Below are positions 11,248 to 62,263 of a stretch of DNA of 64,000 nucleotides, one piece after another. The stretch covers positions 9,920-73,919 of the forward strand of contig JAEUTB010000188.1 of the NCBI GenBank assembly GCA_016787995.1. Direction: 5' to 3'. This DNA comes from Flavobacteriales bacterium. GTDB taxonomy: Bacteria > Bacteroidota > Bacteroidia > Flavobacteriales_F > PHOS-HE28. Numbering within the stretch: the stretch's first letter is position 1; each line of letters begins with the position of its first letter. The translations under genes were made by a program, and so were the position numbers. The notes beneath the pieces were generated by a model. The model did no database searches, was not told where the DNA came from, and saw only the letters and a list, made by a program, of their open reading frames with translations.

Positions 11248-14200
11248 TCAGCGCTTGATCACGCGTTCGGCGGCCAGCACCTCGCCTCCATCATTGAGGA
11301 GCAGCAGGGTATAGGCGCCCGTGGGCAAGGAAGCCAGGGAGATGGGCGTTGGCGCTTCTGCAATGGACAACGAACCACTGCGCACCATGCGGCCCTGGTC
11401 ATCGATCACGGTGTACTGAACAACCTCGTCGCCCATGGCAGCCGCATCGACCCGGATGAGGTCCTCGGTAGGATTGGGGAAGACCCGTATCGTGTTCGAG
11501 ATACACGTTACGCTGGCCGTAGGGAGCGTGGTGCTCTGGCCATCCAGGTCGAACTGCAAGAGGCGGTAGTAGAGCACGGCCGCTGGTGTGGGCGCGGGAT
11601 CATGGTGAGCATAGTCCACCTGTTGATGGCTGTGGCCAGCTGCTGTTACCTGGCCGATATCCGTCCAGTGGGAACCATCCGCGCTGCGTTGCACCACGAA
11701 GTGGCTGCTGTTCTCTTCGCTGGCGGTGGTCCACGCCAATTGCACCGTACCGTTCGAACAGGTCGCATCGAACCACAGCAGCTCCACCGGCAGGGGCACG
11801 TTGTTGTGCGTGCCCAGCCCGTCGAGGTAGCCGGGCATATAGCGCCATGGCCCGAAGACCTGGCCTGTTATGGCTGTGGCAAGATCGAAGCGCACGCGGG
11901 CGCGCACCTTCGTGGCGGTGATCCCCGTTCCGCCACCGGGTTTGCCGATCAGGTTCTTCAGCTCCACGCCGGCCACAGCACCGGGGTTGAAGGTGGCCTG
12001 CTCGGCCGTGTGCGCGGTGCTGTTGTTCACAAGGCCATTGCTGCCGGTGCTGAAGGCGGCACCCTGGATCCGGGTCTCCCAGACGAGTTTCGTTCTCGTG
12101 CGGCCCAGGAAGGGGCGTGCGAACAGCCCCGCCCCGAATTGCGGGATGGGGATGTTCGCTGCAGTGATCGGTGTGCTCAGGTCCGTCTCGTAGAGCCTGA
12201 AGTGGCCTCGGGCAAGGTCTGAGCTGGTATTGCCGAAGTGGACGACGGCGATGTTCGACGTGTATTGACCGATCAACAGATCGCTGTACCCATCCCCGTT
12301 CACATCACCCGCACCAGCCGCGCTGTGCGAGCCACTGCCAAAGATGGTCAGGTCCGGCAAGTTGGTGGGCGCCCCGAAAATGGGGCCACCCAGTCCCCAT
12401 TGCCCACCGAAGTAGATCCTGGCCCCCACAGCGCATTCACTGACCACCACATCGCTGTAACCATCGGCGTTCAGATCGCCCGCGCTGGCCACCGTGGCGC
12501 CGTAGAAGCCCCCTCCGCCCAGGAAGGAGCTCCAAGATGGAGCGATCGACACACCAGCGGGACCACCGTGATGGATGTACGCCTGGAAGCCCATCCGCGC
12601 CATGATCACATCGCTGTAGCCATCCCCGTTCACATCGCCGACGCCACTGGCACAGGCCCCGCTGTGGGGGTTCGAGCCGAAGCGCTGGCCTACGAGAGTA
12701 TGGTTGAAAATGGAGGCGGGCAATGCGGGCAATCCCCCTGGTCCGCCATGGAAGATCACCACCCGGCCCCGGTCCGAGTTGAAGCCACCTGCACCGATGA
12801 TCACGTCGCTGTAGCCGTCGCCGTTCACATCGCCCGCGCCATCCACGCCTTCGCCGTAATTGCTGTTCGGCAGGTGCGGTGCGTCGAAGGGCGCCGAGAT
12901 CCAATCGGGTGTGGCGCTGAGCCCTGCGGGGCTTCCGTGGTACACCATGGCACGGCCTGCACCGGTGTTGTATCCCGGGTGCCCGATGATGACATCGGCA
13001 TAGCCGTCGGCATTCACATCGCCCGCGCAGCTCACACTGAAACCGAAGCGGGTGTTCACCGTGCCAGAAACCGTCCAGTTCGGTGCAGCCGACAGTCCGG
13101 CGGACGAGCCGTGGTAGACATGCACCGTACCTCCTTGCTCAGCCCCGATGATGACGTCGCTGAAACCATCGCCGTTCACGTCGCCCGCGCCGGAGACGCA
13201 GTACCCGAAGCCGGCGATCGCCATCTGGATGTATGTTCGGTCAGGCACGAGTGAGGTGCCCGCCAGAGACCCGTAATGGACGTATGCTCTATTTCCGCCC
13301 GGTGCACCGATGATCACATCGCTGTATCCATCGCCATTGACATCGCCAGCACTGGCCACGGTCCTGCCGTAGGCTGATGAACCAACGGGCCCCGGGAGCA
13401 CGCGATCGGCCGTGTTGCTGATGGACGCGGCTGCACCGGGATAACACCGCACACGTCCCTCGTTGGTGAGGGTACCATCGTGGAATTGGGCACCAACGAT
13501 CACATCGCTGAAACCGTCGCCGTTGAAGTCTCCTGCACTGGCCACGCTGCGTCCGAAGCGGGCATTCGCTTGGAACCCGGACAGGCTCGTGGGCACTGCA
13601 CTGATGCCGGTGGACATGCCCAAGAACAGGTCCACTTCTCCACCGCTCGAGTGTAGCGGTGAACCGGACAACACATCGGCGTAACCATCGCCGTTCACAT
13701 CACCCGCACAAGCCACGCTGCTGCCACGCTGTTCACCAGCAAAGTCCGGTTCAAGGGTCTGGTGAACGATGGTCAAGCCCGAGGCACTTCCGCGCGCGAT
13801 CTGGATACGGCCTTCGTCCGTTTGACCGCCATCCCAAAGCGGTGTACCCACCACCACATCGCTGTACCCATCGTTGTCCACATCGCCGGCGCTGGACACG
13901 CTGGTGCCAGCATTGGCGCTGGCCTGGTCGCTTTCCGCGGTCCAGTGCGCGGCCGTCAGCAGACCGGTGGCGCTGCCCAAGTGCACCACCGCCCGTCCTT
14001 CATCGGCCTGGCCGTTGTCGTAGAGCGGTGCGCCGTAGATGATGTCGCTGTATCCATCACCGTTCACATCACCGGCGCATGCCACGCTGGCTCCGGCGTT
14101 CGCACCGTCCTGGTTGCCTTCGGTGAGCCAGGTGACCGAGCTGGGCAGTCCGGTAGCGCTCCCGTGGAAGACGAAGACCCTGCCTTCGTTGGTGTTGCCC

Positions 14201-50733: not shown

Positions 50734-51000
50734 GCGGTAGGGTGAAGGCACCCCGCTGGGCCATGCAACGGCGCATGGTACCCCGGAGCACCGTGGGTAC
50801 ATCGGGAAGGGGGTGGGGATGTGAACAGGGCCCTCAACTTTCAACCCACACACCGCGCACCACCTTGGCCAGGCCGTGACGCGTCGTTGTCCGGTGAATT
50901 CGTGACCCGGAGGTATGCAGAGAAGCATCCGCGCAAAACGGAGAAGGAAAGCCGCAGGTAGTATGGTGAGACTTCTACACGGAAGGCCGTAAGGCACAAA

Positions 51001-51032
51001 GCAAAGGACCCCGGCTTCCCGGGGTCCTTTGC
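51001..51032. other. perfect 14-bp stem-loop in a 348-bp non-coding gap
   Basis: gcaaaggaccccgg cttc ccggggtcctttgc. It lies between two divergent gene starts, so its function as a terminator is unclear. Confidence 0.3.
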
Positions 51033-51081
51033 TTGGGTCACGGTTGGGCGCATCACTAAATCCAACATCTTCGCATGAGCC

Positions 51082-51813
51082 ATGGCCGCCACACACTACA
51101 AGATCGCCAATTGGGGTGACCCTGTCGGAGAGGGCGTTTCGGATTCACAGTACATCAATGTGACCGGTATCGCCAAGACCAATTCGCCAGCCGAACCAAA
51201 CATCGTGGCGAACGAGTACATCTGTGCGCGCCTTGCAGCAGCGGTTGGGCTACCAGTGCCACCTGGGTTCCTGGTCAAGAAGGACGATGAGCCATGGTTC
51301 GTGTCGATGGATTTCAACCTGGCCGGGGACGTGCTGCCGCCGATCATTCCCCAAATCCTGCTGGCACGCAAGCCTGAGCTGTGCGCTGGGATCGTTCTCT
51401 TCGACGCTTGGATCCTGAACCCGGACCGCCATGCCCGGAACCTGGCGCACGATACCACCACGGACGCCGTTATCATCTTCGACCATTCCCGAGCCCTCAT
51501 GCCCACCGATCTTCCGCAGCGGCAGTACGCCGAGGCCATGGTGGACAAGCCAGCCATTGGCGCTCACTGCTTGGGTACCATACTAAAGGACGCCAGCACC
51601 TTCAAATACTGGCATCAGCGCATCCTGGCCGTGGCCGAGCACCAGATCACGGATGCCCTGAACGATGCGGCTGAAGTTGGCCTTGAACCCGGCAACGTGC
51701 ATTTCTTCCGCCAATACCTCTTGGATCGGCGCCAGCGTTTGCCAAAGATTGTTGCCAATAACCCTGGGGCCTTCCCCAGTCTTACCTTAGGGACCCTCCC
51801 TTGGACACCATGA
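51082..51813 (+). CDS. HipA-like / PI3-4-kinase-fold protein kinase (uncharacterised subfamily)
   Basis: Catalytic-loop-like FDAWILNPDRHARNLAHD (DRHxxN, as in the HipA C-terminal domain and lipid-kinase fold). About 240 aa, no HTH partner upstream. Confidence 0.6.
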   Translation: MAATHYKIANWGDPVGEGVSDSQYINVTGIAKTNSPAEPNIVANEYICARLAAAVGLPVPPGFLVKKDDEPWFVSMDFNLAGDVLPPIIPQILLARKPELCAGIVLFDAWILNPDRHARNLAHDTTTDAVIIFDHSRALMPTDLPQRQYAEAMVDKPAIGAHCLGTILKDASTFKYWHQRILAVAEHQITDALNDAAEVGLEPGNVHFFRQYLLDRRQRLPKIVANNPGAFPSLTLGTLPWTP

Positions 51814-52661
51814 CCGAGCGCGTCCAATACCTCATCGCCCAGTACCAGGCCGACCCCTTGCGCAAGGAGCCCCGCAATGTGGGGGTGATCGCACGCATGG
51901 ACGGACGGACCCTTGCCCGCTTCATGGGCGAAAAGGAAGACGGCCGAATCGACGGACGGGAATTGCGATGGATGAGCTTCCCTGATGTTTATCGCCAGTG
52001 GGTATTCTTCTGGCGCGAGTCGGGGAATTCTGTTGCCCACTTGGAGCAGCTCCTCGCTTCCAATAAGGGCAACTACGGGCTGGTGCGCGGGGGTAAGGTG
52101 TCCGATATAGGCAGCGACAGCCTAGAGCAAGTGGTGGACCACCTCTTCACCCGCTTCGTGAGCGGTGGATTCGCTGAAGCCATGCGCACAGTGGACCAGA
52201 TCACGGTACCGAGCAGGAAGTTGGAGAACGCGATCGAGATCGAGCTACTTGGCATGGACATCCTCGTGGAGGATGATATGCCCAAAGAAGGCGTGAAGCA
52301 TCCGGTACGCCGCAAACATGTCGTGCAAGGCCGCAGAGAGGTTCCTTTCACTCCAGCCTTCTCCCAGGAGAATGGGGCGCTGTGGCTGATCGAGACCTTT
52401 GACTTTACAGGGCCGAAACAACGCCCACTCTTTGAGCATGCCGGCTTTACGGCATACATGTTCAGCGATATCCGCAAAGCACGAGGCACATCCAAGGTTC
52501 AAGCCATCTCCGTGCTGAAGACGGACCCCGAGGCCGAAGAGAGCAAGCATATTGCCAATAGCAGGAAGGTACTCCTGAACGAGGGCGAAGTGGTCGATTG
52601 GAACGACGAGGTCCAACGCAAGGCCTTCCTCGAAGAGCGCCGCCATGTGGCGGTTGGCTGA
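51810..52661 (+). CDS. DUF3037-like protein (uncharacterised), translationally coupled to the kinase
   Basis: ATG 51810 overlaps the kinase stop (ATGA). The N-terminus VQYLIAQYQADPLRKEPRNVGVIARM resembles the DUF3037 signature as I remember it. The rest is unassigned. Confidence 0.55.
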   Translation: MTERVQYLIAQYQADPLRKEPRNVGVIARMDGRTLARFMGEKEDGRIDGRELRWMSFPDVYRQWVFFWRESGNSVAHLEQLLASNKGNYGLVRGGKVSDIGSDSLEQVVDHLFTRFVSGGFAEAMRTVDQITVPSRKLENAIEIELLGMDILVEDDMPKEGVKHPVRRKHVVQGRREVPFTPAFSQENGALWLIETFDFTGPKQRPLFEHAGFTAYMFSDIRKARGTSKVQAISVLKTDPEAEESKHIANSRKVLLNEGEVVDWNDEVQRKAFLEERRHVAVG

Positions 52662-52729: not shown

Positions 52730-53578
52730 TCACCCCAGCGACTTCATTCCCTTGAGCAGCGCTACGATTTGATCATGGTGTCGCGCGAATGCTGGATCAA
52801 TGACTGTGCTGGGAATTGGACTAGGATCCATTTTCTCAAAGACTATGATGCCATATGGCTTGCCGGCATCAGTGTTGTTGAACCGGTACACATAGAACGA
52901 AGTACTGTGCATGTTCATCTTGGTCAATACATCATCTGTAATTGAGCAAGCCTTCTTCATGTATGCCCTGTAGCTCGATCCGTTACCCTTCCATACCGGG
53001 ATGCCGCTATCAATGAACGGCGAGCTTGACCACCCCTTCGCTATGAATCCCTCATTGACGGGATATTTAGGTCGACCTCGCTTGCCGTGCAGCGGATTCT
53101 GGGCTTCTCGGCCAACGAGTACGAAGTGATCATCGATATAGCGATATAGGCTTACGCGACCTTGGCCACCGGCTGAATCGAAGAACTCCTTGAAGCAGTA
53201 CTTAATCGTTGTGCTGCAAAGTTCGAAGTAATCACGGCGCGTTGCCTCCACCTTCTTTCTTGACTGTTCCAATTCAGCTTCGAGTACCAAAAATGATGTC
53301 ACTTTCGACTTCTCAATACCGGAAATAACAATTCCAATAGCACCCAGTATGACACCTGATGCTGTTAGGACAGGGTTCATCTGCTTCCAACTATATCCGA
53401 ACATCACGATTGTATCGAGATCCGACTTAGTGTCTGCAAGCAGCCATACGTAGCCACCAGAAATGGTGAACAACTCTGCTCTGAGGCGCTTCAGAAAGTC
53501 GCGAACAGGGGCAATCATCCATGCGATGAAAATTGCTAGAGCATAGAGAAGTATGTATAAAATCTGTTCCGTCATCAT
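52730..53578 (-). CDS. membrane protein with cytoplasmic GAF-like domain (uncharacterised), distal gene of the R-M operon
   Basis: At least two TM helices (ILYILLYALAIFIAWMIAPV, VLTASGVILGAIGIVISGI), a coiled segment, and a C-terminal alpha/beta domain with a weak GAF-like pattern (GRVSLYRYIDDHFVLVGRE...GKPYGIIVFEK). Visibly more AT-rich than its surroundings. Confidence 0.6.
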   Translation of the reverse strand: MMTEQILYILLYALAIFIAWMIAPVRDFLKRLRAELFTISGGYVWLLADTKSDLDTIVMFGYSWKQMNPVLTASGVILGAIGIVISGIEKSKVTSFLVLEAELEQSRKKVEATRRDYFELCSTTIKYCFKEFFDSAGGQGRVSLYRYIDDHFVLVGREAQNPLHGKRGRPKYPVNEGFIAKGWSSSPFIDSGIPVWKGNGSSYRAYMKKACSITDDVLTKMNMHSTSFYVYRFNNTDAGKPYGIIVFEKMDPSPIPSTVIDPAFARHHDQIVALLKGMKSLG

Positions 53579-53763
53579 TCTCTGCTATTTGACCCATACT
53601 TAATAGGCACCTCCGCCGCCATCCCCAACCCCACCTTCTCCTCCGCAGGTGTCACGTCGAGCGGAGCCGAGACGCGCACCTGCCCGTTCATCAGCAGCGG
53701 CAGCAACCAGTCCCGCAGCGGCGGGAGCTCCTGATCACCACAATATGACCCTGATGTTGTCAC
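53575..53763 (-). pseudogene. orphan HsdS C-terminal tail (relic of the original hsdS 3-prime end)
   Basis: Encodes ELPPLRDWLLPLLMNGQVRVSAPLDVTPAEEKVGLGMAAEVPIKYG. Compare the HsdS internal segment ELASLRDWLLPLLMNGQVRVAEAEEKVG...GLAMAAEPQTPYG. Confidence 0.6.
53609..53730. repeat. direct repeat copy 1 (hsdS CR2/tail coding sequence)
   Basis: The 57-nt block 53674-53730 differs at 3 positions from 54478-54534. Additional shared blocks: ctccgccgccatc.ccaaccc and caccttctcctccgc. Confidence 0.8.
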
Positions 53764-55769
53764 TTCCCTATTTTGGACTTAACCGGCTTAGCTCCGCCCG
53801 TAGGCACCAGACAATTTTCCCGCAACCACTTCAGCCCCCATTCCCACTCACTGAACTCAATGTCCATCTTATGCTCATGCCACTCGGCTGATGCAGCGAT
53901 GAAGATATTCTTTTCCGAAGTCGGTTTGCCGTCCTTCAGCAAGTCGTTCCAAGCCGAATAGAGCGTGGCGACCACCTCGCAACGTTCCGTCCTCAGGGGC
54001 TTCATGAGGCGCACAATGCGCTCTGCTTCTGCGAGGTGACTTCCAAGCAAGGTCTCTGCTCGTTTCACTGCAACGCCCACATTCGGGCCGCTGTGATATT
54101 GATACATGATACCACCCGAACGCAGATCCTTTTCCTCGACAATCCCCCAACGGTGACGCTGCATCAGCGACTCAACCGCTCTTCGGCTCTTGATATCAAC
54201 GGGGCCCGCCGCATCGCGGATCGCATCCCTCCGATGGTCGTTTCCAAGATGGCCTTCAAGGATGTGCTCGATCTTCTCAGCCTTGGTGCGACCTAGCCGG
54301 TGATCTTTGTTGGATACATGTACCACCCATGCGTTAATGGCAGCACGGTCTTCCAGTGCGAATGTGAGCGGCGCTGGCTTGCCGTACGGTGTTTGTGGCT
54401 CCGCCGCCATCGCCAACCCTTCGGTCGCCGAAGCCCTGGGCGAAGGCGTACCCACCTTCTCCTCCGCCTCCGCCACCCGCACCTGCCCGTTCATCAGCAG
54501 CGGCAGCAGCCAGTCCCGCAGCGACGCGAGCTCCCGGTTCTGAGCCTCGAGTTTCCGCTGCTCATCGAACATGGGTCGCGCGATCTTCTCGAATGCGCTG
54601 ATCACTTCCTTATCGGCCAGGACGACCTTCAAGCCGAACAGATCATCCTTGCCAATGGCGCCGAAGGTGGTGCCTGCCGTATCGCGGCGTTGGAAGATCT
54701 GCTCGAAGTACTTCATCACCTCGTAGAGGTAGGCAATGGCTCCATGCTTGCTGTTGAGGGCAGCCAGACCACGACCAATGGCACAATCTTCAAAGGCCAC
54801 GTTCATGGTGCCAACAGGGGCTCGTACACTGAGCAGAATGTCCTCAGACTTGGCGCGGCGAGTAGGCTGGGTCGTGAACATGCGGGTAAGTGGGAAGCGT
54901 GTTCCAAAGTCCGTTGACCCTTGAAAGAAAATGCTACCCTCACCGGAATCGTTGTAGGATGAACCGGGCGGTGATTGCCCCATCGTAATCGTGGCAATAT
55001 CACTGAGTACTCCGGCTCCCCACCCCTCCGGCACCTCCCGCTTCAGCTCCGCGTTGTACACCATGGGCCCGCCGCTGCTCTTGTAGGGCTTGCCTTCCAG
55101 CTTTGGCTTGCCCAGGCGCTTGGCCTGCACGGTGCTCATCGGGAAATCGAACTGCACGAACCAGTAGTCGTACAGCAACTTGGCCATGGCCACCAGCTCC
55201 GCGTTGATCCGCTGGTTCAGCGTGATCTTGGCGTCTAAGGCGGAGAGGACGGAGGCGATGCGCTTCTGTTCGTCAAGCTCAGGGAGCCGTACCGGGAAGT
55301 CGGGAAAATCCGCGATGGGTAATCGATCAACCGTTGCGCCAACGATCGTGTTCCGCTTGACAACGCCGCGCCATTCGTCGCTGAAGAAGTAGTAGTACAA
55401 GAACTCGGGATCGGCCTTCTTGCGATCAACCCTGATCAAAGCCATCCTACGACCCAGACAACAGCGCAGGTCCTCGGGTATTAGGGCGTATCGATTCAGG
55501 GTCGCCTCATAAGAGAACACAATGTCGTCCTTTCTAGGCAGCACGCGTTTGGTCCATCGAGGGAACTCTCCTTCAGCAATGTGCCTAACCGATGAAAGGT
55601 CAAGACGACCATCCTCAGTGATGTTCTTGATGCCCAGGAATACAGGCCCTTCGACCGATGGTGTCGGTGTGGCATGTGGTCCATCATAGACCCCTTCCGC
55701 GAGCCAGCTGATCGTACGATGTTGCCAGTTCTGCCGCATAGGAACTACCTCGTCAACAACTGCCTTCAT
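53760..55769 (-). CDS. hsdS: type I R-M specificity subunit with about 235-aa non-canonical C-terminal extension
   Basis: Two TRD/conserved-region halves (...VPEGWGAGVLSDIATITMGQSPPGSSYN..., ...LRDWLLPLLMNGQVRV). The ORF then continues in frame for about 235 aa unrelated to HsdS. TGATG overlap with hsdM. Confidence 0.85.
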   Translation of the reverse strand: MKAVVDEVVPMRQNWQHRTISWLAEGVYDGPHATPTPSVEGPVFLGIKNITEDGRLDLSSVRHIAEGEFPRWTKRVLPRKDDIVFSYEATLNRYALIPEDLRCCLGRRMALIRVDRKKADPEFLYYYFFSDEWRGVVKRNTIVGATVDRLPIADFPDFPVRLPELDEQKRIASVLSALDAKITLNQRINAELVAMAKLLYDYWFVQFDFPMSTVQAKRLGKPKLEGKPYKSSGGPMVYNAELKREVPEGWGAGVLSDIATITMGQSPPGSSYNDSGEGSIFFQGSTDFGTRFPLTRMFTTQPTRRAKSEDILLSVRAPVGTMNVAFEDCAIGRGLAALNSKHGAIAYLYEVMKYFEQIFQRRDTAGTTFGAIGKDDLFGLKVVLADKEVISAFEKIARPMFDEQRKLEAQNRELASLRDWLLPLLMNGQVRVAEAEEKVGTPSPRASATEGLAMAAEPQTPYGKPAPLTFALEDRAAINAWVVHVSNKDHRLGRTKAEKIEHILEGHLGNDHRRDAIRDAAGPVDIKSRRAVESLMQRHRWGIVEEKDLRSGGIMYQYHSGPNVGVAVKRAETLLGSHLAEAERIVRLMKPLRTERCEVVATLYSAWNDLLKDGKPTSEKNIFIAASAEWHEHKMDIEFSEWEWGLKWLRENCLVPTGGAKPVKSKIGK
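54409..54534. repeat. direct repeat copy 2 (inside hsdS)
   Basis: Partner of 53609-53730, offset 804 nt. Together they bracket the C-terminal extension module of HsdS. Confidence 0.8.
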
Positions 55770-57388
55770 CAGTTCACGTGTAGCGTCGAAAGGCCATCAA
55801 GGATGGCTTTATTCAAGGCAGCCCCCTGTTCGAACATGCCCTGGAGCCTTTTCTCGCGTATATCAACTTCTTGCCGGAATTGAGCTTCGGTGATGTCCTC
55901 GTGATTCAACTTAATCTCGAAGTACTGGCCAGCACTGAATGAGTAGTTCTTGGCCTTGATATCCTCATAAGATACCACCACTGCGAAGTCGTCAACAGTT
56001 TGGTGCCTGTTGAATGTGGTGATGATGAGGTCCTCCTCAGTTGGGGACAGCAAGGTCTTTTGGTTCTTGCCATCCTTTACAGTCGTCCCCAACTTGCTGG
56101 CATCCATCAGTACGATGTCACCCTTGGTGTTCGCCTTGTCCAGAAAGAGCACGCTCACATTGGTGCCCGTGGTGGCGAAGATGTTGCTGGGCATGCCCAC
56201 CACACCGCGCAGCATGCGCCGCTCCACCAATTGCTCACGGATCTTCTTGTCGATCCCGCTCTGGGCGGTCACAAAGCCGGTGGGTACCACAATGGCCGCC
56301 TTGCCCTTAGGCCCCAGCATGTGCATGATGTGCTGGATGAAGAGCAGGTAGATGGCCATCTTATCCTTCTCCTTAGTGGGCACGTTGGGAATACCGGCGA
56401 AGAAGCGGTCGGTGTTGGCCTTGTTGTCCAGCTCGTCCCGGTAGTCGCTGAAGTCGAGCTTGAATGGCGGGTTGCTCACGATGTAGTCGAAGCGCTCCGG
56501 CCAACTGCCCCCCGAATAGGGGTGGCGGATGGTATCCCCTTGGATGATGTTCGGGATGGAGTGCACCAGGTTGTTCAGGACCAGGTTCAGGCGCAGCATG
56601 CTGCTGCTCTTCTGGCTGATGTCCTCGGCGTAGAGGCTGCATTGCTTCTCCCCAATGGCGTGGGCCAGGCTCATGAGCAGCTGGCCCGTGCCCGCACTGG
56701 GGTCGTAGCAGGTCACGTCCTTCACCGGCCCATCCACCAGAATGGCGGCCATGATCTTGGCGATGGCGTGCGGGGTGTAGTACTCGGCGTACTTGCCGCC
56801 GCCGTCCTTGTTGTAGTCCTTTATCAGGTACTCGAAGATGGTGGCGAAGAAGTCGAACTTCTGGGTGAAGATGGCCTCGAAGCTGAAGGGCACCAGCTTG
56901 TTCACGATGGCCCGGCAGAAGGCATCCCGCTTGGTGGGCGAGGTGATGAACTGGCTGAGCGCATCGAAGAGGATGATCTTTTCGCCGGTCTCCTCCTTCA
57001 CGCTGAAGATGTCCGTGTTCTTGACGGCGATGGCGTGCAGCGTGTCGTCGAAGAGCTTGTGGAACTCCTCCCGGTTCTGGTTGTTGTAGAGGTAGGTGAG
57101 CGTGTGCTCGCGCTCCAGCTTGGCGCAGTCCGGCCCCAGGCGGTGCAGCAGCTTCGCGTAGTCCTTGTCGCTGTATCCCGCAGCCACCTTCTCCCAATCC
57201 TCGGCCTTGGCCAGCTTGGGGTCCAGCTGCTTCACCTCGTGGGCGAACTTGTCGTTCAGGAACTTATAGAGGAATGCCTGCGTGATGATCTTGTACTCGT
57301 TGCCGTCGTTGCCCAGCCCGTAGCTAGCGCACACGGCCTTCAGTTCATCGATCAGCGCCTTGGTCTTGGTGTTCAGGTCGGTCACCAT
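55769..57388 (-). CDS. hsdM: type I R-M N6-adenine DNA methyltransferase subunit
   Basis: HsdM N-terminal domain, AdoMet motif YDPSAGTGQLL, catalytic VSNPPFKLDF. The ATG at 57388 overlaps the hsdR stop (ATGGTGA). Confidence 0.95.
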   Translation of the reverse strand: MVTDLNTKTKALIDELKAVCASYGLGNDGNEYKIITQAFLYKFLNDKFAHEVKQLDPKLAKAEDWEKVAAGYSDKDYAKLLHRLGPDCAKLEREHTLTYLYNNQNREEFHKLFDDTLHAIAVKNTDIFSVKEETGEKIILFDALSQFITSPTKRDAFCRAIVNKLVPFSFEAIFTQKFDFFATIFEYLIKDYNKDGGGKYAEYYTPHAIAKIMAAILVDGPVKDVTCYDPSAGTGQLLMSLAHAIGEKQCSLYAEDISQKSSSMLRLNLVLNNLVHSIPNIIQGDTIRHPYSGGSWPERFDYIVSNPPFKLDFSDYRDELDNKANTDRFFAGIPNVPTKEKDKMAIYLLFIQHIMHMLGPKGKAAIVVPTGFVTAQSGIDKKIREQLVERRMLRGVVGMPSNIFATTGTNVSVLFLDKANTKGDIVLMDASKLGTTVKDGKNQKTLLSPTEEDLIITTFNRHQTVDDFAVVVSYEDIKAKNYSFSAGQYFEIKLNHEDITEAQFRQEVDIREKRLQGMFEQGAALNKAILDGLSTLHVN

Positions 57389-60300
57389 GGCGATCGTCCG
57401 TGGAATTCGTTCATGTATTCGCGCAGCACGCAAGCGTTGATGATATCGGCCCCGGCGGGGTCCCAATCCAGTTTCTGCTTGTCCAGCGCGCTGGTCACCA
57501 GCTTCATCAGCATCTGTCCGAAGTAGGCCTCGTTCGCCAGCAGCTTACTGTTGCCGCTCACCTGCGCATCGGCCTCCCGCTTCACGTCCATCAGCAGGGC
57601 GTTCACCTGGCTCTCGCGCTGGCTGATGTCGCCGCGCTCCAGGATCCGCTTATGCACCACTGCGAACTTCCGGTCGTGCTCATACTTGGCCTTCAGCAGG
57701 TCGTTGCGGCGGTTCAGCTCGGCCACCTTGTCGTGGATTCTGCGCAGCTCGCCGATGTTGGCGGTCATCTCCTCCTGGCCTACCTCATCCAGGTTCTTGC
57801 GGTCGAAGAGGCGCTTCAGTTCCTCGTACAGACTGATGAACTCCGGGTCCTTGGGGTCGAAGTTGGCGGCCAGCGCTTCGCGGGTGCGGCGCAGGGTGTT
57901 CTTCAGCTCGTCAGCGATGCGCAGTTCGTCCTCGCTCACCTTGCGGAACAGGAAGAGCACGTTCTCCAGCGCCACGTTCAACAGGTTGGTGCTGTCCACG
58001 TTGTTCTGCACCGCGTCCTTCAGGTTCAGCAGGTCCAGGTGCCGGGCGGCCTCGTTGTGCAGGGTGGCCAGTTTGCGGAAGTCCAGCCGGTCCACCAGTT
58101 CATAGTGGCCGAGCAGCCGCATCAGGTTGTACAGGCTGCGAGCGTTCTCCAGCGCCTTCTTGATCCCCAGCATTTCCCTACGGTCCTGGATCTGGCTGAT
58201 CTGCTGGCTGAAGACCTCGGCGTTGCTGAGGTCGAAGCGGAAGAGACGCTCCTGGATGTCGGCCAACTCGGCCTCGATCTCCTCCTTGCTCTTGAACAGG
58301 CTGCTGTACGTGCCCATCTCGTCGCCCAGCTCGGCTTGCAGCTCCTCGAAGTAGGCCTTGTTGGTGGCGTCGAACTCCTTGGTGATGTCCGCGAAGTCCA
58401 CCACATAGCCGTAGCGGTGCTTCTTGTAGGTGCGGTTCACCCGGGTGAGGGTCTGCAGCAGGTTGTGGCTCTTCACCATGCGGGCCAGGTACAGCTTCTT
58501 CAGCCGTGGCGCATCGAAGCCGGTGAGCAGCATGTTGTACACGAAGAGCAGGTCGATCTGGCCGCCCTTGAAGTTCTCCACCTCCTCGTCCCGCGCCTCC
58601 TTGTCGCCCACATCGTGCAGGATGAGGCTTGCTGTGAGCTTGCGCTTGTGGCGGGTGGTATAGTCGCCATAGCTCGCGGCGGGCTCGGCGGCGATGGCGT
58701 AGTCCGCCACCGTTTCCAGCGTGCGCAATTGCGGGTTGTACTTGGCCTTGAACACCTCCAGCAGCTTCTCTGCCTGCTCGCTGCTGTCGCACACCACCAT
58801 ACCCCCGATCGAGTGGTCGTCCAGTCGTTGGCGGCTCTTCACGAAGTCCTCCACGATGTAGTCCAGCAGCGGTTCCACGAACCGGGCATGGGCATACACG
58901 AGCTTTTTGTTGCCGCTGCCCTTCAACACCTCCAGTTCCTCCAGGGTCTTCTTCAGCTGCACCTTGTAGCCGGTCTCGATGCCTTCCCGGATCAGCTTCA
59001 GGGTGTAGCCGTCGGCGATGCTCTGGTTGTAGTAGTACTTGTGGATGTAGTCGCCAAAGAGGGCCTTGCTGCTGCGGTCCTCACCAATCAGCGGCGTACC
59101 GGTAAGGCCGATCATGATGGCATCGCGGTCCGCGTTCACCAGGTTCGCGAGGAAGCTGCCCTTGGGGTCGTAGCTGCGGTGTACCTCGTCCAGGAAGAAC
59201 ACGCGCTGGGTCTTGATGGCGTAATCGCCGCCTTTGATCACATCCGTCTCCTCCTTGAACTTCTGGATGTTCACCACGGTGATCTCGCGATCCCCGCGGT
59301 CGTTGTGGACGGCACCTGGCTTGCTGAAGTCCTTCACCATCTCGTCGCGCGAGTTCACCACATGCACCTTCAGCCCGCGCATGGTGAACTCCCGCTTGGC
59401 CTGTTTCAGCAGGTCCAATCGGTCCACGATGAAGAAGAATTTAGGCACGATGCCCTTGCCCTGGAAGTAGTCCGTCAGGTACTGGACGTTGTAGTAGGCC
59501 AGCGCGGTCTTGCCGCTGCCCTGCGTGTGCCAGATGATGCCCCTCTTCACTCCCTTCTCCAACTTGGCCTCTATGGCCTTGGTGGCGAAGAACTGCGGGT
59601 AGCGCATGATGTGCTTCTCCACGCCCTTCTCGGCGCGCACGTACGCAATGCAGTACTTCAGCACCGTGGCCAGTCGCTCCTTGCTGCACAGCGAGGTGAG
59701 GATGCGGTTGGTGGGCGTGCCCGGGTGCTTGTTGGTGCCGAACTCCGGCGAGTGCTTGATCACCGCCAGGTTGTTATCCTTCAGCACCAGGTCCTCCAAG
59801 GTGCCGTCCTCAGGCTGCAGCAGGGTAGTAAGGTCAAGCTGCTCCTCTTCCCGGAAGCGGTTGAAGTGGGCGCTGCCATACGAAGCGGTGGCATAGAAGG
59901 CCCCTTGGATGGGTTCGATGTCCTCCGGGTCGTACTCCATGTTATTGGAGAAGACCAGCAGCTGGGTCAGGTTGATGAAGCGCCGGAACTTGGCGTTCTT
60001 GAACCGGGTGTCGATACGGTCGCGCTCTTCAAGGATACCCTGGTGATTGTTCGGCTTCTTCACCTCGATGAAGGCCAGCGGTATGCCGTTCAGCAGCAGC
60101 GTGATGTCCGGCCGGAACTCATCCTCCCCGTTCTTGTAGGTCAGCTCTGTGACCACATGGTAGCTGTTCCGGCTCGGGTCCTTGAAGTCGAAGAGCTTCA
60201 CCCCCGATGCCGAGATGAGCTTGGTGTAGAAGGCCTGGCCGAGGTCCTCGTTATCCAGTACCAACTTCACCGCCTCCAACTCCCGCTTGATATCGTCCTT

Positions 60301-60465
60301 GGACAGCTCCGGGTTCAAGCGCCCCACGCTCTCCAGGAAGATGTCCGTGAAGATGTTCGTTTCCGCATCCCATATGGCCTTCCTGAGCGGCAGGTACGTG
60401 TAGCCCAGCCTGCACAAGTGCAGGATAGCGGGGAGCTTCACGCGGGTGTTCTCGTTGAAGGCCAT
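57382..60465 (-). CDS. hsdR: type I R-M restriction endonuclease/translocase subunit
   Basis: N-terminal PD-(D/E)xK (RPDITLLLNGIPLAFIEVKK). SF2 helicase motifs HTQGSGKTALA and FFLDEVHRS. C-terminal helical domain. Confidence 0.95.
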   Translation of the reverse strand: MAFNENTRVKLPAILHLCRLGYTYLPLRKAIWDAETNIFTDIFLESVGRLNPELSKDDIKRELEAVKLVLDNEDLGQAFYTKLISASGVKLFDFKDPSRNSYHVVTELTYKNGEDEFRPDITLLLNGIPLAFIEVKKPNNHQGILEERDRIDTRFKNAKFRRFINLTQLLVFSNNMEYDPEDIEPIQGAFYATASYGSAHFNRFREEEQLDLTTLLQPEDGTLEDLVLKDNNLAVIKHSPEFGTNKHPGTPTNRILTSLCSKERLATVLKYCIAYVRAEKGVEKHIMRYPQFFATKAIEAKLEKGVKRGIIWHTQGSGKTALAYYNVQYLTDYFQGKGIVPKFFFIVDRLDLLKQAKREFTMRGLKVHVVNSRDEMVKDFSKPGAVHNDRGDREITVVNIQKFKEETDVIKGGDYAIKTQRVFFLDEVHRSYDPKGSFLANLVNADRDAIMIGLTGTPLIGEDRSSKALFGDYIHKYYYNQSIADGYTLKLIREGIETGYKVQLKKTLEELEVLKGSGNKKLVYAHARFVEPLLDYIVEDFVKSRQRLDDHSIGGMVVCDSSEQAEKLLEVFKAKYNPQLRTLETVADYAIAAEPAASYGDYTTRHKRKLTASLILHDVGDKEARDEEVENFKGGQIDLLFVYNMLLTGFDAPRLKKLYLARMVKSHNLLQTLTRVNRTYKKHRYGYVVDFADITKEFDATNKAYFEELQAELGDEMGTYSSLFKSKEEIEAELADIQERLFRFDLSNAEVFSQQISQIQDRREMLGIKKALENARSLYNLMRLLGHYELVDRLDFRKLATLHNEAARHLDLLNLKDAVQNNVDSTNLLNVALENVLFLFRKVSEDELRIADELKNTLRRTREALAANFDPKDPEFISLYEELKRLFDRKNLDEVGQEEMTANIGELRRIHDKVAELNRRNDLLKAKYEHDRKFAVVHKRILERGDISQRESQVNALLMDVKREADAQVSGNSKLLANEAYFGQMLMKLVTSALDKQKLDWDPAGADIINACVLREYMNEFHGRSPW

Positions 60466-60552: not shown

Positions 60553-61080
60553 ATGCACCGCCTCACCTTCCTTCGCACCCTTCTCGGCAGCCCGGCCCTG
60601 CTCACCTTGCCGCCGTTGGAACTGCTCGGCACCGCGGAGCAGGATCGTTTGGCGTGGACGAAGGACTGCCATCAACTTTTCGTGTACGATGGGTTCGTAC
60701 GCGGTTTTCAATACCATGCCGGTCCGCAGGTGATCGGCCAAATGAAGGCGCGCGACGAATTGGATCTGGTGCGCGAATACGATAACGAACACGACCCCGA
60801 TGCGGTGGCCGTGTATTGGCAAGGGCAGAAGCTGGGGTACTTGGCCATGTTCGAGAACAGGGCACTGGCCAACCTGATCGATCACGGGATGTTGCTGGCC
60901 GCCTACGTGGCTTACACCGCGCCGGAGCTGGAGCCTTGGGAGCAGTGCTTCATTGCGGTGGAGCTGTTGGTGCCTGCCAACGACAGTTTCGATACATACC
61001 TCGTGCATTACTTGCAACGCCGCGATGCGGGTTTCAAGCAGCACCAGCATTATGGTGGCGAGAAGGAAGGCTCGGGGTGA
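60553..61080 (+). CDS. HIRAN-domain protein
   Basis: FVRGFQYHAG...DELDLVREYDNEHDPDAVAVYWQGQKLGYLAMFENRALANLI matches the HIRAN pattern. Divergently transcribed from hsdR across an 87-bp gap. Confidence 0.7.
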   Translation: MHRLTFLRTLLGSPALLTLPPLELLGTAEQDRLAWTKDCHQLFVYDGFVRGFQYHAGPQVIGQMKARDELDLVREYDNEHDPDAVAVYWQGQKLGYLAMFENRALANLIDHGMLLAAYVAYTAPELEPWEQCFIAVELLVPANDSFDTYLVHYLQRRDAGFKQHQHYGGEKEGSG

Positions 61081-61290
61081 CTTTTCGCAAAGCCCGTGTG
61101 GAATGCACGCGCACGCCCTGCCGGATCAGCACGACCCTGCCGCAAGCTGTACGCTTACGGGTACAGGGTGCGCGGGCTGTCCACGGCTTGCGCGCCTGCC
61201 TGCGGTAGGCAGGGTCGTACCCAACTCGGGGAGCTTGTGCGGCGTGCCCGTGCGAGTTGGGCTGCGACTTAGCCGTGGCGGCTTTTTGGC

Positions 61291-61318
61291 TCCACCTTTT
61301 TGCCGTCAAAAAGGTGGA
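61291..61318. terminator. 11-bp stem-loop between convergent genes (candidate terminator)
   Basis: tccaccttttt gccgtc aaaaaggtgga, 49 nt downstream of the nuclease stop. No clear U-tract beyond the stem itself. Confidence 0.35.
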
Positions 61319-61366
61319 AGGACATGCTTCAAGAGCGCAGCCCGCCGTACTCGTCGGTACAGCTGA

Positions 61367-62263
61367 TCACCACACCACCCCCGCATCCTCCTCCTCTTCC
61401 AACGCCTCTTGCACGCTGGTGGGCAGGGCATCGAGCAGGTCCAGGCCGGTGCTTTGTTCGATCGCGTCCACCGTGGTGCGGTAGGCGTACCAAGGCTGGG
61501 CGGTGGCGCTGGCGCTGTTGGGCATGTCCACGGCGATCACACGGGCGCCTTCGGTGCTGATGCGTTCCAGGTCGTTGCTGTCGTCGGGGATGATCACGAG
61601 CACCTTCCAGAAGCGGGCGGGCACGGCGATGGCGCCGCCGGCGAGGTGGGTGGTGAACACGCCTTGCGCGTTGGTGCCCCCGTTGCCGTAGCCACCGGCG
61701 ATGGTGTAGATCTCGTAACCGTCAGCGATGAGGTCGCGGGCGAAGGCCTCGAGTTGGAACCAGGTGTCCTGGTTCATGTCGGGCGCTTGGGGTGCGATGT
61801 TGGTGAGCAGGAAGGTGGCGGCGTTGTCGGCATCGGAGGCGTCGCGATCATCGCTGGGGCAGAGATGGCCGCGGTCGAAACCGGTGCCGCTGTAGGCGAA
61901 GGTGCTAACGGCGTAGAAAGAGGCGGGCAGCAGCGGGTCGGGTTCGAAACAGTCGCAGCGTTCGGCGCTGCCTTTCCACGCGGCGCTCAGGTGCCAGCTT
62001 ACCCAGCGGGCCTGGCCGCGGCTGTTGTCGTAGCCTGCGGTGAATTGCGGGTGAACGATCAGGTAGTTGTTGGCGGCCACCACGTTGGCGATGGCGCCGC
62101 TGGGATTGCCCAGGGCCATGTTGTCGCCGCGGGCGTTGTCGCTGGTGGGCGTGGGCTCGGGGTCGGGCTCGGGGATCTCCACCTCCTTCTGGCAGGCGGC
62201 GAAGAGCAGCACGGCGGCCAGCAGCAGCGGCGCGCGGGAACGCGAATGGGGAGAGCGGAACAT
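61367..62263 (-). CDS. secreted DNA/RNA non-specific endonuclease (NucA/EndoG beta-beta-alpha-Me family) lipoprotein
   Basis: Lipobox LLAAVLLFAAC. Catalytic GFDRGHLCPSDDR (DRGH motif) followed by NIAPQ. Confidence 0.85.
   Translation of the reverse strand: MFRSPHSRSRAPLLLAAVLLFAACQKEVEIPEPDPEPTPTSDNARGDNMALGNPSGAIANVVAANNYLIVHPQFTAGYDNSRGQARWVSWHLSAAWKGSAERCDCFEPDPLLPASFYAVSTFAYSGTGFDRGHLCPSDDRDASDADNAATFLLTNIAPQAPDMNQDTWFQLEAFARDLIADGYEIYTIAGGYGNGGTNAQGVFTTHLAGGAIAVPARFWKVLVIIPDDSNDLERISTEGARVIAVDMPNSASATAQPWYAYRTTVDAIEQSTGLDLLDALPTSVQEALEEEEDAGVVW

Follow-up and report, generated by a model that had tools for sequence, protein, structure and literature searches.

This study concerns a cassette of two genes within a stretch of 64,000 nucleotides (nt) of DNA, referred to here as the window, from a Flavobacteriales bacterium (assembly GCA_016787995.1, contig JAEUTB010000188.1, positions 9,920-73,919 of the forward strand). 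The open reading frame (ORF) of the first gene, A, encodes a protein of 243 amino acids (aa) that includes FDAWILNPDRHARN, and the second gene, B, encodes a protein of 283 aa. Hereby, an ATGA at 51810-51813 contains both the stop codon of A and the start codon of B, resulting in an overlap of 4 nt. On the upstream side, a non-coding gap of 348 bases lies between A and a divergently oriented gene for a secreted protein, and a long perfect hairpin is found inside this gap. Downstream, a gene for a membrane protein is followed by a type I restriction-modification (R-M) operon (Table 1). The guanine-cytosine (GC) content decreases from about 0.66 upstream to 0.57-0.60 across the cassette and to 0.48-0.50 across the membrane-protein gene. 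Neither the ORF list nor the family scans of the window provide a helix-turn-helix (HTH) gene of the HipB type adjoining the pair. A first-pass annotation, made from the letters alone, had described this layout correctly, including the overlap and its coordinates, the 283-aa second ORF, the gap with its hairpin, the missing HipB-type gene and the AT-rich transmembrane gene with hsdRMS behind it; its reading of a kinase catalytic loop in the 243-aa ORF is borne out below.

Table 1. Positions in the window of the two genes, the upstream element and the neighbouring genes.
Feature	Position	Strand	Length	Description
Gene A	51082..51813	+	243 aa	compact HipA_2-family Ser/Thr kinase, predicted toxin
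Gene B	51810..52661	+	283 aa	partner, predicted neutraliser/regulator; start ATG at 51810; DUF3037-like and PD-(D/E)xK-fold domains
Gene B, N-terminal domain	51810..52178	+	aa 1-123	DUF3037-like
Gene B, C-terminal domain	52212..52658	+	aa 135-283	PD-(D/E)xK fold
RNA-like element	50884..51039	+	156 nt	conserved; six helices in five stem-loops, covariation
Membrane protein	52730..53578	-	282 aa	low GC; neighbour, outside the pair; without family match
Type I R-M operon	53760..60465	-		convergent with the pair; family matches for hsdS, hsdM and hsdR
hsdS	53760..55769	-	669 aa	Methylase_S; PADLOC Specificity_I (1.4e-101)
hsdM	55769..57466	-		N6_Mtase (2.7e-61); start probably an internal ATG at about 57391
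hsdR	57382..60465	-		HSDR_N, SWI2_SNF2, ResIII

The first-pass annotation had further proposed an uncharacterised module. This part does not hold, since the combination of a HipA-like kinase with a DUF3037 protein is that of the PADLOC phage-defence candidate PDC-M66 (A, kinase; B, DUF3037 protein) and has been validated in two settings. In E. coli, the system DS-6 was validated and renamed HipAD by DeWeirdt, Mahoney & Laub (PMC13092281); its original discovery is credited there to Brenes & Laub 2025. Of the two proteins, DS-6A is the HipA-like kinase, and DUF3037 together with DUF1829 makes up DS-6B; mutating a key predicted catalytic residue of DS-6A abolished defence, and AlphaFold3 predicts contacts between A and B as well as between B and DNA (PMC13092281). 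DS-6A comprises 249 aa and DS-6B 275 aa, with the kinase gene first and an overlap of 4 nt, and a D139A mutant of DS-6A was made, D139 being the Asp of LNADR (PMC13092281 supplement). In the Retron-Sda1 operon, a HipA/DUF3037 pair represents a stand-alone defence module: deletion of the kinase abolished defence against phage Bas51 and deletion of the DUF3037 gene was toxic, while the retron parts were dispensable (PMC12548924). Based on the data presented in the following, we consider it likely that the window locus is a two-gene kinase-toxin/neutraliser module of this HipAD (DS-6/PDC-M66) kind, belonging to a divergent clade.

The kinase and its partner protein

Protein A matches the Pfam family HipA_2 (PF20613) with 40.8 bits at a cut-off of 27, and falls narrowly below the cut-off for HipA_C (29.8 bits; cut-off 30.5). 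The same precomputed Pfam assignment, HipA_2, is found on all 24 homologues of A from a collection of 5.8 billion proteins, and A also matches phrog_3162 (7e-12). The AlphaFold model of A has a predicted local distance difference test score (pLDDT) of 91 and a predicted template modelling score (pTM) of 0.89; its top 30 fold matches in the PDB are all HipA of E. coli or Shewanella, CtkA of Helicobacter or HipT of Legionella. In a sequence search of the PDB with the A profile, HipT ranks first (7.7e-4). With 243 aa, A is the kinase core alone, as in HipT and CtkA.

The active site of A is intact. Its catalytic set comprises K32, E45, D108, N113, D115 (codon 51424-51426), R116, N120, D134 and H135. 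Across 31 diverse homologues, which take in kinases beside canonical DUF3037 genes as well as bona fide PDC-M66A proteins, no variation is seen at K32, D108, N113, D115, R116, D134 and H135, and hardly any at E45. In HipA-type kinases, these conserved positions correspond to the Lys/Glu pair that binds ATP, to the catalytic loop and to the Asp that binds the metal. A profile of the A-clade kinases reaches DS-6A with 1.6e-12 over two short blocks (97% probability in hhalign), and D115 of A, within LNPDRH, is aligned with D139 of DS-6A. The corresponding hhalign comparison with kinases located beside canonical DUF3037 genes yields a probability of 96%. Among the PADLOC models, PDC-M66A (8.7e-7, 86 model positions) and PDC-M03A (4.5e-8, about 40 residues) match A, both on the catalytic loop only. 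Membership in PDC-M03 was rejected, as the match of A is confined to that loop and the neighbouring gene is without any PADLOC match.

Protein B, by comparison, belongs to a family without informative names in the source databases. Among 1.84 billion cluster representatives (clusters at 50% identity), 658 are related to B at E<=1e-3, and 83 of these at E<=1e-30; nearly all of the latter align along their entire length, which is about 280 aa. B also aligns over its full length with phrog_5137 (8.7e-5). The AlphaFold model of B (pLDDT 91) consists of two domains joined by a disordered linker.

For the N-terminal domain, the relationship to DUF3037 can be followed through the family. The DUF3037 model PF11236 is matched individually by 10 of 72 aligned family members, with 8.7e-6 as the best value. 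In profile-profile comparison (hhalign), the B family aligns with the short canonical DUF3037 proteins of the class at residues 5-122, which corresponds to the whole domain (E 2.6e-4, 42% probability), and the alignment covers the motif Y-x-I-x-x-Y-x-P-x-x-R-x-E-x-x-N-V-G-V. Comparison with the PDC-M66B-type proteins of four loci (L044-L047; we number the loci with L and the genomes with G), which form a small alignment, is collinear over columns 1-261 with 88% probability and an E of 2.8e-6. After addition of DS-6B to that alignment the probability increases to 90%. Control comparisons with reversed alignments and unrelated profiles gave E values of 0.3-0.8 and probabilities of at most 0.2%. 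The two-domain proteins of L044 and L045 themselves match PADLOC PDC-M66B with 2.8e-100 and 7.5e-35, respectively. Directly compared with DS-6B, the B profile reaches only 1e-3, in two collinear pieces. Taken together, these remote-homology comparisons suggest that the B family is a real but remote relative of DUF3037.

Fold searches with B returned almost solely PD-(D/E)xK proteins. Among the matches are the nuclease domains of Can2 and Card1, the arenavirus cap-snatching endonuclease, XisH, Mus81, MunI, BstEII and Shedu, as well as phage proteins named 'PD-(D/E)XK nuclease'. Within the C-terminal domain the family conserves H164, H180 (Phe in this protein), Q186 (invariant), E195, D198, H210 and D220; hereby, the position at which the Asp of a PD-(D/E)xK triad is expected is taken by the invariant Gln. 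Pfam DUF1829 was detected neither in B nor in its family alignment, and the likeness of the second domain to DUF1829 is one of fold only. Searching PDB sequences with the B profile gave nothing significant.

Co-occurrence of the pair and its genomic setting

To evaluate the association of the two genes, loci were fetched via either protein. In every one of the approximately 19 loci the kinase gene is adjacent to and co-oriented with the partner gene, with the kinase first, and in most pairs the two genes directly adjoin each other or share a few bases. The pairing of A and B is therefore far beyond chance, in line with the earlier expectation that it recurs in other genomes. B led to L001 (a Flavobacteriales metagenome-assembled genome; 79/76% identity), the congener G011 (70/59% identity), the metagenome contigs L006, L007, L009, L010 and L011, and the Gordonia phage described below. 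The loci reached via A (L066-L075) all carry a B-family gene directly downstream. In the temperate Gordonia phage EMsquaredA, gene 41 ('serine/threonine kinase') and gene 40 form such a pair in the integrase/immunity region of the lysogeny module. A tblastn search of the phage collection with a bona fide PDC-M66B protein gave no match.

The cassette is accessory and patchily distributed. Among the genomes sampled, the B family occurs in 2 of 37 from the genus and in none of 400 others from the phylum, and the neighbourhood statistics were accordingly drawn from metagenome contigs. A type I R-M operon adjoins the pair in five loci, namely the window, L001, G011 (L048), L066 and L070, and the genes between pair and hsdS vary from locus to locus (a transmembrane protein, HNH and AAA ATPase genes, or DUF3644). 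No R-M neighbour is present at the close homologues L071-L075, L068 and L069, nor at the distant homologues L006, L010, L011 and the Gordonia phage. An obligate tie to type I R-M was thus rejected.

Apart from R-M genes, other defence-related and mobile genes surround the homologous pairs, as the first-pass annotation had anticipated in placing the pair among such genes. The pair of L068 lies in a tyrosine-integrase element, that of L075 near an ImmA-like regulator and a UvrD helicase, that of L006 near PIN and PemK toxin genes and a transposase, and that of L008 beside a Multi_ubiq/Prok-E2/ThiF cluster. L066 shares the left flank of the window (ABC exporter, TetR, Usp) and carries extra genes ahead of the cassette, which points to a variable island at a fixed chromosomal site.

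Several neighbouring genes are recorded here in their own right. The membrane protein downstream of the pair is without a match in Pfam, NCBIfam, PADLOC and PHROGs; its homologue keeps the place between pair and hsdS in L066/L067, and the HNH and AAA ATPase genes take this place in L001. The last approximately 230 residues of HsdS (53760-54452) lie beyond both target-recognition domains and have no Pfam match, and the homologous HsdS proteins of L001, L048 and L066 comprise 451-490 aa compared to 669 aa in the window. On the far side of the R-M operon (60553-62263), two proteins are encoded: a HIRAN-domain protein of 175 aa, whose gene diverges from hsdR, and a secreted DNA/RNA non-specific endonuclease of 297 aa. 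In G011, the same island (L048, 11513-14749) contains a DUF1828 protein directly upstream of the RNA-like element described below; this protein shows no profile similarity to B. In the same island, another HipA_2 kinase gene (13045-13863) overlaps with the ORF behind it, which encodes 315 aa without Pfam match; the two may represent a second kinase pair of another type.

A structured RNA-like element upstream of the kinase gene

The terminator-like hairpin of the upstream gap (stem at approximately 50999-51034, followed by UUUGCUU) forms the 3' end of a longer conserved element, which ends 43-47 nt ahead of the kinase ATG. The sequence of the element is kept upstream of the cassette in L001, in G011 (L048)/L070 and in L066/L067, and in L001 and G011 the upstream reach of the conserved non-coding stretch exceeds that in the window by about 130 nt. 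In the common fold of six helices in five stem-loops, 91.8% of the cells are paired, and compensatory changes are found in 7 of 37 pairs. This covariation was reached by none of 500 shuffles, and slid controls gave values of 0-1. As only four distinct element sequences are available, the covariation is suggestive, not conclusive. The single-sequence fold has a z of -4.1, and G-U pairs place the element on the plus strand, i.e. the strand of the kinase gene.

A covariance model run on 61 genomes of the genus found strong copies only in the three genomes with the cassette; weak matches elsewhere in the genus are not located beside kinase genes. Diverged copies that BLAST-type DNA searches had missed were recovered by the model. 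The upstream regions of the distant pairs, searched by the covariance model as well, contain no comparable element. No Rfam family reaches its threshold on the element, and an identity as RsmY was rejected, with 26 bits at a cut-off of 57 bits and the GGA-in-loop pattern absent. Between the end of the element and the ATG no promoter-like site was found in a scan that covers sigma-70-type promoters only. The element can be read either as a leader/attenuator or as a small RNA of the cassette in this subclade, and it probably regulates transcription of the cassette.

Interpretation and comparison with known systems

For the window pair, toxicity, neutralisation and anti-phage activity, as well as trigger and target, are assigned by analogy with its relatives, and most plausibly the pair is a toxin/neutraliser or anti-phage module. 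According to the mechanism that we propose, A would act as a minimal HipA-family Ser/Thr kinase that arrests growth by phosphorylating an essential host protein. B, which would be translated right behind A through the ATGA overlap, is expected to keep A in an inactive state, in the most likely case because its DUF3037-like N-terminal domain binds the kinase directly. A kinase is also paired with the short canonical DUF3037 partners, from which the C-terminal domain is missing, and this suggests that neutralisation resides in the N-terminal domain. In that case, the nuclease-fold domain of B would be an add-on that most likely binds nucleic acid, for autoregulation or for sensing an invader. 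Upon phage infection, or upon loss of the carrying genetic element or of B, the hold of B on A would be lifted, growth would stop and the infection would be aborted.

Several observations weigh against this interpretation. B itself is matched by no model of NCBIfam, PADLOC or Pfam, the last searched down to E<=10, and the Pfam DUF3037 model, run on the whole genome, did not match it. The resemblance to DUF3037 suggested by the first-pass annotation consequently stands as a remote one, carried by the individual family members and by profile-profile comparisons with clean controls, and does not extend to a direct Pfam or PADLOC match on B. Likewise, the Pfam check proposed there was positive for A through HipA_2, with HipA_C just under its cut-off, and negative for PF11236 on B. 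The link of B to the validated systems is one of remote homology, at about 16% sequence identity. Moreover, no canonical D...(D/E)xK triad can be made out in the C-terminal domain of B. The kinase gene of L008 (3254-3998) is broken into two frames of 101 and 135 aa, with an intact partner gene downstream; this sole hint of toxin decay may reflect such decay or an error of long-read metagenome assembly. Finally, the adjacency to R-M genes could result from hitch-hiking within the island.

Alternatively, the pair might be a plain addiction-type toxin-antitoxin system that stabilises the island or mobile element, or aids persistence, and has no anti-phage role. The kinase-toxin architecture, related to HipA, CtkA and HipT, is compatible with such a role, as are the carriage of the pair by an accessory island, an integrase element and a temperate phage and the further toxin-antitoxin genes next to the pair of L006. 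However, both tested relatives protect against phages, and R-M and further defence genes are repeated neighbours of the related loci; in addition, a stabilising role and abortive infection do not exclude each other. We regard a role restricted to addiction as unlikely. The roles of the two proteins could also be reversed or shared, with B as a nuclease effector or catalytic nucleic-acid sensor that is regulated by the kinase and is not a passive antitoxin. While the nuclease fold and the highly conserved polar cluster of H164, Q186, E195, D198, H210 and D220 would fit this assumption, the catalytic triad is not recognisable, with the invariant Gln at the expected Asp position, and most DUF3037 partners of the class are without the C-terminal domain and still retain a kinase. 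In the Retron-Sda1 operon it is, furthermore, the loss of the DUF3037 gene that is toxic and the loss of the kinase that abolishes defence. A reversal or sharing of roles seems decidedly improbable.

The convergent type I R-M operon in the five loci named above might suggest that the pair is a functional accessory of the R-M system, e.g. a back-up that fires upon restriction failure. We give this very little credence: the close and distant homologues listed above, from L071-L075 to the Gordonia phage, are without an R-M neighbour, and the genes between pair and hsdS differ among the loci. A kinase toxin with its neutraliser, as proposed above, might finally be extended to three parts in this subclade. 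Hereby, the RNA-like element would serve as a dedicated regulator, either as an attenuator-type leader gating the toxin operon or as an RNA bound by the nuclease-fold domain of B, and the C-terminal domain of B would be a nucleic-acid sensor and not a simple DNA-binding autoregulator. This extension is speculative and, in our estimation, rather doubtful; if true, it would amount to an RNA-controlled kinase-based abortive-infection switch, which is not described for HipAD-type systems.

With the window locus as a kinase-toxin/neutraliser module of a divergent clade, the validated HipA-kinase/DUF3037 system has a sizeable sister clade in metagenomes, Flavobacteriales and a Gordonia phage. Since the Pfam, NCBIfam and PADLOC models miss the partner family, censuses of defence systems undercount the system, and profiles for this clade would remedy the undercount. 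The natural variation, i.e. partners with and without the nuclease-fold domain and cassettes with and without the upstream RNA, should be useful for assigning roles to the DUF3037 and nuclease-fold domains. In other respects, the locus represents an accessory defence cassette of the ordinary type, located within a defence island.

Compared to the classical HipBA and HipBST systems, the window pair shares the kinase fold and the catalytic loop; like HipT and CtkA, its kinase is without the N-terminal subdomain of HipA. In contrast to these systems, the window contains neither a HipB HTH antitoxin nor HipS, and the partner, a member of an unrelated family, is encoded by the gene that follows the kinase gene. 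A classical HipBA was thus rejected, because no HTH gene is adjacent and the 243-aa kinase matches the HipA core only. The module of the Retron-Sda1 operon differs from the window in its surroundings, as no retron reverse transcriptase is found near the window pair.

The canonical pair of the Bacteroidia (PF20613 and PF11236) resembles the window pair in that a HipA_2 kinase gene overlaps a downstream DUF3037 gene. Within the class, 71 of 401 genomes carry this pair, and in all 30 fetched loci (L014-L043) a kinase of about 265 aa overlaps the DUF3037 start; it is absent from the genus of the window. Unlike in the window, its partner is a single domain of 127-131 aa without the nuclease-fold C-terminal half, which is the form of most DUF3037 partners in the class. 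The canonical DUF3037 sequence is unusually conserved (E of about 1e-45 over 118 positions), and in this respect the canonical pair resembles stably inherited genes more than it resembles a rapidly evolving defence cassette.

Members of PDC-M66 from the same class (L044, L045) consist of a kinase of 269-274 aa and a partner of 280-281 aa and thus correspond to the window pair in two-gene architecture and protein sizes; the partner families, moreover, align over their full length in profile-profile comparison. Yet, bona fide members score between 1e-35 and 1e-100, compared to 8.7e-7 for A and no match for B, and the PDC-M66B model matches neither the window partner nor three further members of its family. 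As PDC-M66A matches only on the catalytic loop and PDC-M66B not at all, PADLOC v2.0.0 would not call the locus.

HipAD/DS-6, finally, shares with the window pair a kinase of about 245 aa encoded first, a partner of about 280 aa encoded second, the 4-nt overlap, the absence of HipB and a location on mobile or accessory DNA. The N-x-D-R catalytic loop is common to both, with D115 present as the counterpart of D139. The window partner, with its remotely and probably DUF3037-related N-terminal domain and its C-terminal domain of the PD-(D/E)xK type (DUF1829-like in fold), also resembles DS-6B in domain layout. The two differ in that the host of the window pair is a high-GC Flavobacteriales bacterium and in that DS-6B matches Pfam DUF3037 strongly and the window partner does not, with very low sequence similarity between them. 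The pairing of a HipA-like kinase with a DUF3037 protein is already known, and the window locus is most likely a divergent variant of it in which both proteins, and especially the partner, lie beyond the present Pfam and PADLOC models.

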